Source: an uncultured Eubacteriales bacterium
Lineage (GTDB): Bacteria > Bacillota > Clostridia > TANB77 > UBA1234
DNA length: 64,000 bases
NCBI GenBank assembly: GCA_964394075.1
Contig: CAYMVI010000001.1
Span: forward strand, 167,195-231,194
Direction of reading: 5' to 3'
Part shown: in pieces, positions 54,791-64,000 of the stretch
Layout of the letters: the number at the start of each line of letters is the position of its first letter
Numbering within the stretch: the stretch's first letter is position 1
Made by a program: the position numbers and the translations under genes
The notes under the pieces: generated by a model
The model's database searches: none
Told to the model about the DNA's origin: nothing
The model's input: the letters and a program-made list of their open reading frames with translations, nothing else

Positions 54791-55588
54791 TTAATTTTGA
54801 GAAGCTAATTCATATAAGACGAAATATTCCCAACCACGAGGTGAGCCGGTAACAGGATAACTAAAATCGTTGAGTTTATCTTGATAATCATCTCCAAAAT
54901 CTATGTGGTGTTGAATAGGTCTAACTCCGCTAAAACGATCATTTAACCAACTGTTTCTGGCAGCTACTGAAAGGGCACCTACTAAAATCTCTACACCATC
55001 AACGTCGAACCTAAAGGTTGCCGATGGCTTAGAATATGTTGTATAAACTTCACCTGATTCTGGTGTATACGCATTACCATTTTCATCGACCAATTTTGTG
55101 TCTCCATTTACATATAGTTCATTATTATAAATATATGGTGGCCAAATAAACACAGTTCCTGTTTTTGTAACAAAATATGAGCATTCAACACTATTTAATT
55201 TTTGAGTTGAAGTTTTTATTTTTGGCAATTCATAATCTATAACTTTAGGCATTGCGTCGCCGGACAACTGTGTGCAATGCATTTTTTCGGCGTATGCTCT
55301 TGTAAGCCAATTCTTCCCATCTTTGTCTACTAAAGTAGCACCCTTAGCAATGTAGTTATATACTTGAGCATCTGTTCTTTGAACTCCGTTTTTTCCTTCT
55401 ATACCTTTTAAAGTAACTGCTTGTTGGTCTAATAAATTTTGTACTTCGGCAATGTTGTTAGTAAAGTTTGAAAAGTTTGCATTCTCAATTGTGTCCGTAG
55501 AAGAACCAAAAGCGACAGCTGCTAAAATAATAATTACAATAATTGTGATGACTAAAGAAATCATCGAAACACCTAAATTTTTCTTCAT
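54791..55588 (-). CDS. type-IV-pilin-like N-terminus surface protein (paralog A)
   Basis: The N-terminus MKKNLG|VSMISLVITIIVIIILAAVAF aligns position-for-position with the pilin alpha-helix ..IIGILAAIA, but has Ser instead of Glu at +5. It is homologous to the 63055 ORF, sharing ANFSN.TN and IWPPY. Confidence 0.55.
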   Translation of the reverse strand: MKKNLGVSMISLVITIIVIIILAAVAFGSSTDTIENANFSNFTNNIAEVQNLLDQQAVTLKGIEGKNGVQRTDAQVYNYIAKGATLVDKDGKNWLTRAYAEKMHCTQLSGDAMPKVIDYELPKIKTSTQKLNSVECSYFVTKTGTVFIWPPYIYNNELYVNGDTKLVDENGNAYTPESGEVYTTYSKPSATFRFDVDGVEILVGALSVAARNSWLNDRFSGVRPIQHHIDFGDDYQDKLNDFSYPVTGSPRGWEYFVLYELASQN

Positions 55589-55633
55589 AAAAATCGCTCC
55601 TAACTAATAAAAGTAATTTTAGTCAAAAACCAT

Positions 55634-55654
55634 TATATATATATATATATATAT
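55634..55654. repeat. (TA)10 dinucleotide microsatellite forming the spacer of the paralog-A promoter
   Basis: On the minus strand it reads ccTTGAAT(AT)n..TATAATgg. The -35 and -10 hexamers overlap the tract ends, giving a 15-bp spacer, which would be 17 bp with one extra unit. Confidence 0.6.
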
Positions 55655-55734
55655 TCAAGGGATTTTCGATAAATTAAATATTACATTTTTGTAACAAAAA
55701 AGACGAAGATCACATTTCTTCGTCTTTTGAAATT

Positions 55735-57120
55735 TTATTTTCCTTCTACATTTTTCAATGCACTATAACAATAATTATTACTTGGATCCCACAATGTAAA
55801 ATCGTTTATGCCTAAATCATATTGTGCTTGTATTTGTGCTTGTACTTCGGTAGTACCATATGATAAATAATTACCTTTACCAAGCCAGCTTGCTGTGAAG
55901 TCTTGTAGGTAAGGTCTGATTTTTGCTAGATGATAATCTGAATAATTAAGTTCTGATTTTTCTATTACAGTATCACCACTAAAATTATCGCCGCTAATTG
56001 AAACGTTATATGTTTTATTTATGTATTCGTTATAACGTTTTAATGCGTCATTTATAGAATGATAGATTAAACTATATGGAGCAGTGTCAGGTTTTGCTAA
56101 ACCATATTCATTGAAATTATAATGAGATGGATAAACCATTGGACAAATTACATCAACTATACTTGCAATTCTTGAAAAGTCTTGGCCGATATTTTCAAAG
56201 TCACCATTTCGTTTTGTAATTATTCCAAATACATCTGCAGATATTTGTACATCATAAGGTTCTAATTCAACCATAACTTTTTCTAAAAATTCAGCAATTA
56301 TATCTGATTTAGTTTTTGTTCCAAATTCAAATCCATATGCTATTTGACTAACACGTCCTTCAGAAGAAGGGAATCTAATGTAATCAAATTGTATTTCATC
56401 AAATCCTAATTCGGCAGCTTCTTTTGCAAGTGCTATTGGGTAATCCCAAGAAGCTTTATTATATGGGTTCGGCCATTTGTTTCCTGCTGAATCTTGCCAC
56501 ACAGTACCATCAGCTTTTTTGTATGCTATGTCTGAAACTTTTCCGGCATAAGTAGGATCTTTAAAAGTTACGATTCTACCAATTACATATAAATCATTTT
56601 CGTGCAATTCATTTAGAATTGCAGAAATATCGGAAACCATTTTTTGCGATGCTTTTATATCGATTGCGGTTTGGACAGAGGAGTTATATGTTAGATGGCC
56701 AGCTTCATCTTTTATATCTATTACTATTGAATTGTATCCATATTCTTTTAATGAAGAAATCATTTTGCTTCTAAGTCCTGGTGTGCCCATTACCCAACCA
56801 GTTGCATATACAGCTTGTACATTTTCTGGTACAGGCATTTTCTTTTTTATAATTTCAAGTTCTGTATTTTCACCAGAAACATTTTGTTCAGGTTCGATAG
56901 ACGGCGATGAAACAATTGGTTCGATATTTCCGGATTCAATTATGAAATCACCTGAAGTTTTTTCGCCAGAATCAGAAATAATATTTTCAATATTTCCACT
57001 ATTTTGAGTTGTGATATTAGGAGAGGAAACATCGATAGTTTTTAGACTAAACATTCCTACGATTAAACCTATAAAAATAGAGCAGACAATTACCACACTA
57101 AGAAGTGTTTTTGAATTCAT
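55735..57120 (-). CDS. membrane-anchored putative glycoside-hydrolase-like TIM-barrel protein (DUF4015/GHL15-like)
   Basis: VQAVYATGW...IVIDIKDEAGHLTY matches the DUF4015 core. N-terminal transmembrane helix. Confidence 0.45.
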   Translation of the reverse strand: MNSKTLLSVVIVCSIFIGLIVGMFSLKTIDVSSPNITTQNSGNIENIISDSGEKTSGDFIIESGNIEPIVSSPSIEPEQNVSGENTELEIIKKKMPVPENVQAVYATGWVMGTPGLRSKMISSLKEYGYNSIVIDIKDEAGHLTYNSSVQTAIDIKASQKMVSDISAILNELHENDLYVIGRIVTFKDPTYAGKVSDIAYKKADGTVWQDSAGNKWPNPYNKASWDYPIALAKEAAELGFDEIQFDYIRFPSSEGRVSQIAYGFEFGTKTKSDIIAEFLEKVMVELEPYDVQISADVFGIITKRNGDFENIGQDFSRIASIVDVICPMVYPSHYNFNEYGLAKPDTAPYSLIYHSINDALKRYNEYINKTYNVSISGDNFSGDTVIEKSELNYSDYHLAKIRPYLQDFTASWLGKGNYLSYGTTEVQAQIQAQYDLGINDFTLWDPSNNYCYSALKNVEGK

Positions 57121-57756
57121 ATATCCACCTCCAATATAATTAAATTATATAAAGAGAGTAGTATAAAAACAAGGAAAAAAACTTTGTTAATATTATTGCA
57201 ATTAAAATATCGAAATGCTAAAATTATTTATGGAATGGAGATGAATAATCTCTGTACCAGAATGCGAAAACGAATTTTACAATATAAATTCGGAAAGCGT
57301 AAAATAACACATATTTTGCGAGTAAAAGTATATATGTGAAAAGTGACGAGTTGAAAATTTGAGATTGAATATCTTAAAAAACAAGTTGCTAGGATCTACT
57401 GGATGTAGCTACAGGAATTGTAGATATGTTCACTGATCGCTACGAGCGTGTAAATTTATTAAAGCCCCAAACCGAGATAATTTGTGCGACTGGGTAGCGA
57501 CACTGGTTTTTAAAGGAACTAGAATTATAGCTATTAAGGATAGTAGTTTACAGACAAAGACCGCGTATAGCAATATACCAGTTAGTAGATTTTAAAATAA
57601 ACATATATTGCGATGAGGAATCTTGGTATAAAAAGCCTCATTGAGATTAGCCAATAAATAAGGTCCAGTAGATTTGCTACTGGATTTTGTTTTTGCTAAA
57701 AATCCAAAAAATGCCTATAAAATAGCAATTTGAAGCAAAATTATTATATAAATTTA

Positions 57757-57786
57757 TTGACTTAGCCTTAATCCCAAAGGTATAAT
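57757..57786 (+). promoter_or_regulatory. sigH promoter
   Basis: TTGACT, an 18-bp spacer and TATAAT. Confidence 0.45.
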
Positions 57787-57818
57787 ACAACGTGTAAAGC
57801 TTGTAGGAGGTTTAAGAC

Positions 57819-62830: not shown

Positions 62831-62858
62831 GGTAGTAGCATACGAAGGAGGAATTGTT

Positions 62859-62924
62859 ATGAGATTTAAAATAGAACGTGTAACCGTTGGGGCTCTACAC
62901 ACACACACACACACACACGGATAG
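62859..62924 (+). CDS. 21-aa leader peptide MRFKIERVTVGALHTHTHTHG whose 3' half is encoded by the (AC)11 tract
   Basis: A perfect RBS AAGGAGG lies 7 nt upstream. The ORF ends 37 nt before a strong terminator. Confidence 0.45.
   Translation: MRFKIERVTVGALHTHTHTHG
62897..62918. repeat. (AC)11 dinucleotide microsatellite
   Basis: 22-nt perfect AC run, unusual in a 30% GC genome. Confidence 0.9.
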
Positions 62925-62960
62925 TTTTTTAATAAAATTAAATAGAAGAGAATAGTTTAA

Positions 62961-62994
62961 GCACTCGTTGATGTTATGTCAACGAGTGCTTTTT
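62961..62994 (+). terminator. intrinsic terminator/attenuator between the leader ORF and the pilin-like gene
   Basis: GCACTCGTTGA tgttatg TCAACGAGTGC followed by T5. Confidence 0.7.
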
Positions 62995-63005
62995 GTGTTT
63001 TGCGT

Positions 63006-63033
63006 GTCCAAGTGAGGACGTCCCCAATTGGAC
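63006..63033. repeat. palindromic repeat unit copy
   Basis: GTCCAAGTGAGGACGTCCCCAATTGGAC. Confidence 0.8.
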
Positions 63034-63054
63034 GGAAGGGAGAAGAGTAAAAAA

Positions 63055-64000
63055 ATGAGAAAAAACAAAGGAATATCAATGTTATCATTAGTTATAACAA
63101 TAATAGTAATAATAATTTTAGCTGCAGTTGCGTTTGCAAATTCAACAAGAACAATTGATGAAGCTAATTTTTCGAATTATACAAATGATGTAAGCGAAGT
63201 AGGAACATTTTTCAAGAAAACTTCAGTAGAGATGCACGGATCAGATTTATTAAAAAATAATCCAATGAGGGACGAACAAATATATAACTTCGTTGCTAAA
63301 GGTGGAGAAACAATCGATGATTTCTTGAAGCCATCTGATGTACCAGATTATACAATAATTGAAGAGGATGCTAGAATCGGTATAGAATTACCTGTAATAA
63401 AAGTAGAATCAGGGACAGGAAAAAGAATTCCAATAAAATATGCAACAACAAGGAAAGGCGAAATATTTACTTGGCCACCATATGATTATGCGGATGCGTT
63501 ATATATAACCGACACAGATACTGTGGATGATAAAATGCAAACTGTAATTTCTGTTGGTAGTGAAAGATTTACAATTGCCATAGATGAAAATGATGGTTCA
63601 TTGTTACCGGCACCAGGAATACCGGTGTCGCCAGAAGGTGAAAATGCTGGAGTGGGAAACAATGGCAACAATGGAAATAATGCTGGAAATGGTGAAAATG
63701 GTACTGGTGATAATAACAATCAAAATGGTGAAAATGGAGAGGAAACACCAGAAGAAGTAAAAAAATATACAATTACGTTTAACGCAAATGGTGGAAGTGG
63801 CAGCATGAGTTCTGTTGAAGTAAATGAAAATGCGAGTTATACACTTCCAAGTTGTAGTTTTACACCAGCAACAAATTATGTATTTGAATCTTGGCAAGTA
63901 AATGGTGCCACCAAATCAGTTGGAGATACTATTACGATAACGGCTAATACTACAATTACAGCAATTTGGAAAGTGCAAACGATAGTAAAGCTTGGTGATT
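63055..64000 (+). CDS. type-IV-pilin-like N-terminus surface protein (paralog B) with an N/G-rich linker and a Flg_new (Listeria-Bacteroides repeat) domain. It runs off the window.
   Basis: N-terminus MRKNKG|ISMLSLVITIIVIIILAAVAF. It shares ANFSNYTN and TWPPY with paralog A. YTITFNANGGSGSM...YVFESWQ is the Flg_new signature. Confidence 0.6.
   Translation, partial: MRKNKGISMLSLVITIIVIIILAAVAFANSTRTIDEANFSNYTNDVSEVGTFFKKTSVEMHGSDLLKNNPMRDEQIYNFVAKGGETIDDFLKPSDVPDYTIIEEDARIGIELPVIKVESGTGKRIPIKYATTRKGEIFTWPPYDYADALYITDTDTVDDKMQTVISVGSERFTIAIDENDGSLLPAPGIPVSPEGENAGVGNNGNNGNNAGNGENGTGDNNNQNGENGEETPEEVKKYTITFNANGGSGSMSSVEVNENASYTLPSCSFTPATNYVFESWQVNGATKSVGDTITITANTTITAIWKVQTIVKLGD

Follow-up and report, generated by a model that had tools for sequence, protein, structure and literature searches.

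This analysis concerns two related genes, here called paralog A and paralog B, in a 64,000-nucleotide (nt) stretch of DNA from an uncultured Eubacteriales bacterium (contig CAYMVI010000001.1; the whole stretch is referred to below as the window). Their products are very likely type IV pilin-family proteins with a non-canonical class III signal that lacks the glutamate at mature position 5 (Glu5), and one of the two is modular. They belong to a large, unannotated and lineage-specific pilin family, the dispersed members of which are apparently switched by repeats. The pilin identity, first raised from the letters alone (hereafter the sequence-only reading), is supported by the position of family members beside the pilus operon in relatives, by a highly conserved N-terminus, by weak N_methyl matches, by profile matches to pilins in the PDB and by a predicted structure of helix plus head. 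The features of the two genes, with lengths in amino acids (aa), are the following.

54791..55588, minus strand: paralog A coding sequence from the list of open reading frames (ORFs), 265 aa, a plain pilin-like protein
55508..55588, minus strand: class III-like signal of paralog A (aa 1-27), a leader to Gly6 and then 21 hydrophobic residues, read from the sequence
54755..54780, minus strand: terminator-like hairpin immediately 3' of the paralog A stop codon
63055..64000, plus strand: paralog B coding sequence, continuing past the window end, 315 aa visible, a modular pilin-like protein
63055..63135, plus strand: class III-like signal of paralog B (aa 1-27), leader MRKNKG, Ile at +1, Ser at +5
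63607..63759, plus strand: low-complexity linker of paralog B rich in Asn, Gly and Glu (~aa 185-235), between the pilin module and the extra domain
63766..63963, plus strand: Flg_new domain of paralog B (Listeria-Bacteroides repeat, PF09479, aa 238-303), 32.8 bits against a gathering threshold of 27

Paralog A begins MKKNLG/VSMISLVITIIVIIILAAVAFGSS (the slash marks the putative cleavage site), a 6-aa leader MKKNLG followed by the hydrophobic alpha1N and then the head. Paralog B begins MRKNKG/ISMLSLVITIIVIIILAAVAFANS, and the N-terminus common to the two can be written M[KR]KNxG/[VI]SM[IL]SLVITIIVIIILAAVAF. When the residue after Gly is numbered +1, L6, I8 and ILAAVA at 15-20 are read in both ORFs, which confirms the proposed match to the pilin alpha1N in register. 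The reported lack of the canonical Phe1 and Glu5 is likewise borne out: position +1 is Val in paralog A and Ile in paralog B, and position +5 is Ser in both. A short hydrophilic leader ending in Gly and the ~21 hydrophobic residues that follow it, both expected of type IV pilins, are present, and Glu at mature position 5, equally expected, is missing from both paralogs (Ser5) and from the family as a whole. The two proteins are homologous over their first ~170 residues (E = 4e-26). The Asn/Gly-rich linker and the Flg_new repeat that had been reported for paralog B are both there, the repeat above its Pfam threshold.

In a collection of 5.8 billion proteins paralog A has 83 homologues, and no Pfam domain was found in their pilin part. 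By exhaustive profile search the family comprises 2,438 clusters (at 50% identity) at E <= 0.001, 298 at 1e-10 and 97 at 1e-30, and no Pfam or NCBIfam model covers it. Every named source is a metagenome-assembled genome (MAG) assigned to uncultured Clostridia or "Eubacteriales", and comes from the rumen or from sheep, deer, rabbit or human (Hadza) gut. Mean identity across 39 diverse members is 89% over mature residues 1-21, 46-48% over alpha1C and the head, and 28% at the C-terminus; a conserved N-terminus combined with a variable C-terminus is the classical pilin pattern. Conservation of the Gly at -1 reaches at least 90% in the family alignment, and of 137 further cluster representatives 97 show the N-terminal motif including this Gly; the remaining 40 are truncated or without that N-terminus. 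At position +5 all 97 have Ala, Ser, Thr, Val or Met, and the 113 pilin-like N-termini in the fetched loci have Ser, Ala, Thr or Val; Glu is never found in either set. Conserved motifs in the head, taken from the family alignment, are AQVYNYxAKGAT, ELPxxK(V) and SYFVTxxGxVFxWPPY. The head domain also occurs, without alpha1N, at the C-terminus of longer proteins (P0239, P0246, P0249, P0306, P0314, P0333), several of which begin with an ordinary signal peptide and a region that, judged by eye, resembles the copper-amine-oxidase N-terminal domain. To judge from these arrangements, the pilin head appears to be a portable module.

The operon linkage seen in relatives is decisive evidence for pilin identity. 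Queries with the PilB, PilC, PilD, PilM-like and PilO-like proteins of a related operon gave no tblastn match in the 64 kb window, in agreement with the sequence-only reading, which had seen neither a prepilin peptidase nor a pilus ATPase there. Genetic linkage to a prepilin peptidase, an ATPase and a platform protein is found not in the window but for family members in relatives, where the gene order is conserved: pilM/N-like, pilO-like, a small protein, Peptidase_A24 (A24_N_bact), three small pilin-like genes, T2SSE (PilB/GspE type, with MshEN), T2SSF, and then the family member. NCBIfam models confirm PilB/GspE and PilC/GspF, and the PilM match is weak. A family member follows immediately after the operon in the metagenomic contigs L001 (P0020/P0022), L004/L005 (P0010) and L080/L081, with two copies in tandem in L001. 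Among the matches listed, 11 of the 13 species-level MAGs with close homologues have a family member directly after the pilus operon. The three small pilins of the operon differ at +5, where only the 160-aa protein keeps Glu5 (G/YSLLE) and the other two have Ser or Thr. In the operon of locus L012, the linked family copy is flanked on both sides by terminator-like hairpins and has its own promoter-like site. Major pilin genes often form a transcription unit of their own with a promoter and terminators, and the putative signals around the L012 copy are as expected for a strongly expressed structural pilin.

The closest relative among the matches listed is RGIG6180 (contig JAFWYG010000005.1, 766 kb, sheep rectum), which is collinear with 52.6-64 kb of the window at 83-91% nucleotide identity. 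It carries a complete pilus operon (L012) on the same contig as its paralog B orthologue and ~114 kb away from it. Extrapolating from this arrangement, we infer that the operon of the source genome would lie ~60 kb past the left end of the window, with M16 peptidase genes, lgt and mraZ predicted to come after it. Synteny with an operon-bearing closest relative contradicts the supposition that no pilus machinery is encoded in the source genome.

Profile and structure comparisons point in the same direction. Paralog B matches Pfam N_methyl (PF07963) at 11.6 bits, below the gathering threshold of 21.2, and paralog A gave no match to this model. The expected resemblance of the N-terminus to pilin profiles stands in part: N_methyl is the commonest weak match and is found in 29 of the 39 members (best E 0.0054), all below threshold. 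Sub-threshold matches to the archaeal Pilin_N (PF07790) and Flp1_like (PF16982) models were seen in 5 and 6 of the 39 members, respectively, and none above threshold. When the family profile was compared with PDB sequences, type IV pilins made up seven of the eight best matches (E 0.08-2.8), including Geobacter PilA, S. sanguinis PilE1, MshA and PilA, and the Gly at -1 is aligned in the printed alignments. AlphaFold (pLDDT 80, pTM 0.76) predicts an unbroken helix over residues 9-66 (58 residues), followed by short helices and a beta-rich head; a model of the head alone has a pLDDT of 83. The predicted shape is the lollipop of pilins, with an N-terminal helix of ~50 residues and a beta-rich head, as a prediction and not as a matched fold.

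The family shares many features with the type IVa major pilins of monoderms (C. difficile PilA1, R. albus GP25, S. sanguinis PilE1/PilE2). Common to both are a basic leader running to Gly, ~21 hydrophobic residues with ILAAxA at 15-20, a long alpha1 with a beta-rich head, a gene adjoining pilD/pilB/pilC/pilMNO, and a conserved N-terminus with a variable C-terminus. The family differs in lacking Glu5 and Phe1 and any match to IPR012902/PF07963 above threshold, in a head without detectable structural relative, and in its larger size of 190-280 aa. The Clostridial pilins published so far have canonical signals (PMC6916266).

The modular layout can be followed to its end in full-length orthologues of paralog B (L033, L017), which have 565-586 aa and the same Flg_new domain. 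The RGIG6180 orthologue (586 aa) consists of the pilin module, the linker, Flg_new and a C-terminal domain of ~280 aa, for which neither a Pfam match nor a PDB-sequence match was found. Paralog B itself has the composition of a modular pilin, namely a pilin module and then a domain with a signature that is not pilus-specific. The suggestion of a pilin-anchored adhesin is upheld to the extent that paralog B, with Flg_new after a linker, fits the published modular-pilin concept (PMC8179133). Each genome has one operon-linked copy and several dispersed copies; the Hadza MAG CAKPAA01 yielded at least 10 loci, and several other MAGs at least 5-6 each. Flg_new is carried by paralog B, L017, L033 and L034, PT-HINT (Pretoxin-HINT) stands at the end of P0061 and P0063, and Cys-rich repeats are found in P0087 and P0088. 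Giant members reach 2,000-3,300 aa (L037, 2,419 aa; P0299, 3,321 aa). The PT-HINT endings suggest that some pilin modules may bear polymorphic-toxin-like cargo.

In its plan of pilin module, linker and grafted domain (Flg_new, PT-HINT, Cys-rich), the family resembles the modular pilins S. sanguinis PilB (vWA) and PilC (lectin) and CofB of enterotoxigenic E. coli (ETEC). The survey that described this grafting design picked its proteins by IPR012902 (PMC8179133), and family members, having no match to this signature, were therefore invisible to it. Two differences stand out: S. sanguinis PilB and PilC keep Glu5, and here many modular paralogues per genome are encoded outside the pilus operon.

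Across the 64 kb window, Tandem Repeats Finder reported only two period-2 arrays with 10 or more copies, and these lie in the 5' regions of paralogs A and B. In 1.12 Mb of related loci there are 23 dinucleotide arrays, most of them upstream of pilin-like genes. The array ahead of paralog B lies in a leader region with the following parts.

62802..62830, plus strand: promoter-like site upstream of the leader ORF, a weak consensus match
62859..62924, plus strand: leader ORF upstream of paralog B, encoding MRFKIERVTVGALHTHTHTHG and then a stop, with a strong ribosome binding site GGAGG
62897-62918, plus strand: (AC)11 array inside the leader ORF, from Tandem Repeats Finder
62959..62991, plus strand: intrinsic-terminator-like hairpin with a 15-bp stem and a T tract, a putative attenuator, from a consensus scan and RNA folding

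The hairpin between leader ORF and paralog B is kept in L017 and L033. The leader stop falls 34 nt before the hairpin at n = 11, 26 nt before it at n = 10 or 13, and 3 nt before it at n = 9 or 12. The alleles differ, with n = 11 in the window, n = 9 in L017 and an interrupted tract in RGIG6180 (L033), the latter two being in the long frame, and each of three independent Logan contigs from the window organism breaks within the (AC) tract. Metagenomes with this organism include SRR14307636, SRR14307647 and SRR14307653. The leader itself is conserved, with the consensus M-x-K-x-L-E-T-V-G-A-V-(HT)n. An nhmmer profile of it found 24 copies in the 1.12 Mb of related loci, every one of them on the same strand and 37-917 nt upstream of a pilin-like gene, and none of the 24 precedes an operon-linked family member. 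No Rfam family was found over the leader region.

A repeat within a leader ORF, a terminator before the gene and a stop position that shifts with n are the elements of leader-peptide attenuation; all are present ahead of paralog B, for which such control is predicted from the sequence. In this model (AC)n would set the frame of the leader ORF and, with it, whether the terminating ribosome reaches the terminator; at n = 9 or 12, a ribosome stopping 3 nt before the hairpin should disturb the stem. The closest precedent is Pil1 of S. gallolyticus, in which leader-peptide attenuation by GCAGA repeats was experimentally shown (PMC3894217). The two have in common a repeat in the leader ORF followed by a terminator before the pilus gene, and a repeat number that varies between alleles. 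In paralog B, unlike Pil1, the repeat is the dinucleotide (AC)n, with which every slip shifts the frame.

The array ahead of paralog A, (TA)10.5 at 55634-55654, coincides with a promoter-like sequence.

55632..55658, minus strand: putative paralog A promoter, with TTGAAT at 55658-55653, a (TA)n spacer and a perfect TATAAT at 55637-55632

As sequenced, the spacer is 15 nt long and consists entirely of (TA)n. The same promoter in other samples has a spacer of 17 nt (L075) or 11 nt (L076), and both of these loci encode the identical protein P0002. The optimal spacer between -35 and -10 is 17 nt. A tract between the two hexamers and length polymorphism of that tract, as in a promoter-spacer switch, are both found at the putative paralog A promoter. 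Here (TA)n would set the -35/-10 spacer, and the window allele, at 15 nt, would be one unit short of 17. In the same way (TA)n fills the promoter spacer of the H. influenzae hifA/hifB switch, where (TA)9-11 alleles are known (PMC2651432). Both the hif and the Pil1 switches differ from those predicted here in that they serve chaperone-usher and sortase-dependent pili, respectively, and not a type IV pilus; here, moreover, the leader ORF is kept across many genomes and paralogues. As sequenced, both window alleles are one repeat unit away from their predicted "on" state, and expression of A and B is probably phase-variable.

Paralog A is missing at the syntenic site of RGIG6180, where feoB and the DUF4015 gene are 38 nt apart (L033:2145-2183, corresponding to 54751-55735 of the window). 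The missing segment includes the promoter and both flanking hairpins. The gene was therefore either gained recently in the lineage of the window or lost recently in the relative. A close paralog-A-like protein, P0002, comes from the same sequencing project; it was considered as an operon-linked copy and rejected, being another orphan.

The machinery genes of the related operons have a peculiarity of their own. In 8 loci, from 7 different contigs or MAGs, pilB (T2SSE) can be read through only with a +1 frameshift, and the codon concerned is exactly the same in each.

L004:3833-3835, L005:7119-7121, L006, L008, L010, L012:7750-7752, L014:7755-7757 and L032 (all outside the window): pilB frameshift sites

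At this site, CTA CTA C GGA GAG, the zero frame reads CUA CGG AGA and meets a stop within 4-6 codons. The +1 frame restores the Walker-B motif ILL-GEIRD, and its next 179 codons are open and 75-82% identical at the protein level. Synonymous sites flanking the shift differ between species. The extra C is absent from four other loci and from P0227, which clusters at 90% identity with the truncated product P0211. The site is a candidate programmed +1 frameshift at the rare CGG codon, or alternatively may be an on/off allele; a full-text search returned no published report of a pilB +1 frameshift. Separately, pilC (T2SSF) is split by a frame change at ~aa 302/303 in L004:4393-5740, L005:7679-9026 and L006:8385-9730, and the split is identical in two independent samples.

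The analysis establishes the sequence features, the family, the linkage to the operon in relatives, the predicted shape of helix plus head and the differences in repeat length between alleles. Cleavage, filament assembly, the choice between a major and a tip role, and switching are matters that we infer, and the proposed course is as follows. PilD (Peptidase_A24), encoded elsewhere in the genome, would cut after Gly6, and the mature protein, beginning with Val or Ile, would be held in the membrane by the near-invariant 21-residue alpha1N until the PilB/PilC/PilM-N-O machine extracts it into a type IV filament. The invariant alpha1N would act as a shared assembly interface, by which plain and modular paralogs could enter the same filament. 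Paralog A would be a plain variant of the structural subunit, and paralog B a modular pilin, which the filament would presumably display as an adhesin or as another kind of effector; the two would be expressed as separate transcription units outside the machinery operon. In classical systems Glu5 is dispensable for processing and needed for homopolymer assembly (PMC4471445). Since Glu5 is absent family-wide, and from two of the three minor pilins as well, a salt bridge from Glu5 to the N-terminal amine could not form, and alpha1N would pack hydrophobically in an archaeal-like manner. By analogy with archaeal pili, Glu5-less assembly likely depends on such hydrophobic packing.

Several points weigh against the pilin identity and the mechanism built on it. 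Glu5, a defining feature of bacterial pilins, is absent from the family, and Glu5 mutants of classical pilins form no homopolymers (PMC4471445). None of the pilin models (Pfam N_methyl PF07963, NCBIfam including TIGR02532) reaches threshold. A Foldseek search of the PDB with the full model and with the head alone found no similar pilin or other structure, so the head fold appears to be without a solved relative. Type I signal peptidase could plausibly cut at AVA/F (residues 25-28) as well. The window contains no pilus machinery, and the operon of the source genome would follow from synteny with RGIG6180 only; as pilB is frameshifted in this closest relative and in seven other species, the machine could be impaired there. 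Finally, the putative promoters and terminators are consensus matches only.

The family may not supply the main structural subunit of the fibre. Its members would then be tip-located or priming minor pilins, like GspK/PilK or S. sanguinis PilA, on a fibre of a Glu5-bearing pilin such as the 160-aa G/YSLLE protein of the operon, which does retain this residue. The Glu5-less subunit of known systems caps the tip (PMC10191384, PMC9934059), and modular pilins are thought to be located there (PMC8179133). Glu5-less mutants co-assemble with wild-type subunits (PMC4471445). The Glu5-less tip pilins (GspK/PilK/PilX, S. sanguinis PilA) share with the family a degenerate class III signal that standard tools miss (PMC9934059). 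Those subunits, however, are single-copy and encoded in the minor-pilin operon, whereas the family is multi-copy, and its gene beside the operon stands apart from the overlapping minor-pilin cluster, as a unit of its own behind pilC that has promoter-like and terminator-like sites. Tandem copies and many dispersed copies, plain and modular alike, have one invariant alpha1N, which is unlike that of the Glu5-bearing protein. Two of the three minor pilins are also Glu5-less, and the loss of Glu5 thus marks the whole system and not a cap. A role confined to the tip is therefore rather unlikely, and we favour the view that the family forms the body of the fibre.

A further possibility is that a type IV-filament-like machine anchors or displays these proteins at the surface and forms no long pili, much as in the archaeal bindosome, where functional proteins are sent to a short surface assembly by class III signal peptides. 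Shared with archaeal type IV pilins and class III surface proteins are the missing Glu5, domains fused to the class III signal and weak matches to the Pilin_N and Flp1_like models; one MAG has at least 10 paralogues, and the C-terminal domains of some are diverse and very large, in proteins of up to 3,321 aa. The family differs from the archaeal proteins in its bacterial host, in a peptidase of the A24_N_bact type, in an ATPase of the PilB/GspE type with MshEN and in the presence of PilM/N/O. Against the display reading, the machinery is of the PilB/GspE type, PilM/N/O and minor pilins accompany it, and short plain members (190-270 aa) stand at the end of the operon like structural pilins. We consider a bindosome-like assembly improbable, and both it and the tip-only role remain live as sub-hypotheses of the pilin reading.

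That the proteins are ordinary Sec-secreted or signal-anchored proteins, cleaved at AVA/F or not at all and resembling pilins by hydrophobic composition, is most improbable: the n-h-c layout with A-x-A before Phe28, the sub-threshold pilin HMMs and the heads found behind ordinary signal peptides (P0239, P0246) speak for it, but the h-region has at least 21 residues and is near invariant, signal peptides are not 89% conserved among proteins otherwise 30-45% identical, the Gly at -1 after a short basic leader is essentially invariant, the predicted helix runs unbroken past the A-x-A to residue 66, the linkage to pilD/pilB/pilC is tight and repeated, and the alignment to solved pilins is register-exact, unlike a compositional artefact. 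Conservation and operon linkage spoke against reading the N-terminus as a plain Sec signal or as a hydrophobic match by chance, and both readings were rejected. Since the pilin reading holds, the "new class of processed surface protein" that the sequence-only reading had offered as an alternative is not needed.

With the pilin reading preferred, a wider picture can be sketched, which we put forward tentatively and regard as doubtful in its full form. Gut Clostridia may possess a filament made of a main subunit and at least 10 interchangeable modular subunits per genome, all of them Glu5-less and assembled in an archaeal-like manner, with heads (adhesins, toxin-like or enzyme-like domains) chosen by dinucleotide switches that include a conserved (AC)n leader-ORF attenuator dedicated to the family.

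The remainder of the window is ordinary-looking chromosome, with polA, tex, pyrG, nrdD, 6S RNA, feoB, sigH and a glmS ribozyme followed by glmS. Within 54791-64000, the genes between paralogs A and B are unrelated to them: a DUF4015 glycosyl-hydrolase-like gene, sigH, a tRNA, a zinc-ribbon protein, a membrane protein, the glmS ribozyme with glmS, and a hexapeptide transferase. The RNA features and one protein-coding gene that bears on a dismissed candidate are located as follows.

51387-51588: 6S RNA
58500-58572: tRNA, after sigH
59952-60113: glmS ribozyme, upstream of glmS
20937-22376, minus strand: FtsH-like gene (AAA and Peptidase_M41)

A plus-strand ORF at 20901-22406 (501 aa, with a Cys/Phe-rich translation and no Pfam match) was dismissed as the antisense shadow of the FtsH-like gene.

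A 28-nt palindromic element, GTCCAAnnGrGGACGTCCyCnnTTGGAC, occurs in 7 copies in the window, against 0 expected by chance.

20791-20818, 20860-20887, 25734-25761, 25777-25804, 62628-62655, 62764-62791 and 63006-63033: copies of the 28-nt palindrome

The copies are mostly intergenic and set as inverted pairs. Two palindromes lie upstream of paralog B, one of them after the terminator hairpin and before the ribosome binding site. This arrangement recurs in L017, and L029 has more copies, but RGIG6180 lacks the element. The palindrome resembles a lineage-specific REP-like repeat or an operator.

Conservation of Glu5 in bacterial type IV pili has been called absolute (PMC10710030), a stated universality that the family challenges. 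A large Glu5-less bacterial family on the standard PilD/PilB/PilC machine would be a natural test of the role of Glu5. Furthermore, whole clades of pilins and modular pilins from gut anaerobes escape surveys based on signatures (IPR012902, PilFind). The repeat tracts ahead of A and B are a new observation that suggests phase variation, and the dispersed, apparently repeat-switched copies suggest phase-variable surface display in abundant uncultured Clostridia of gut and rumen, which bears on colonisation and immune evasion.

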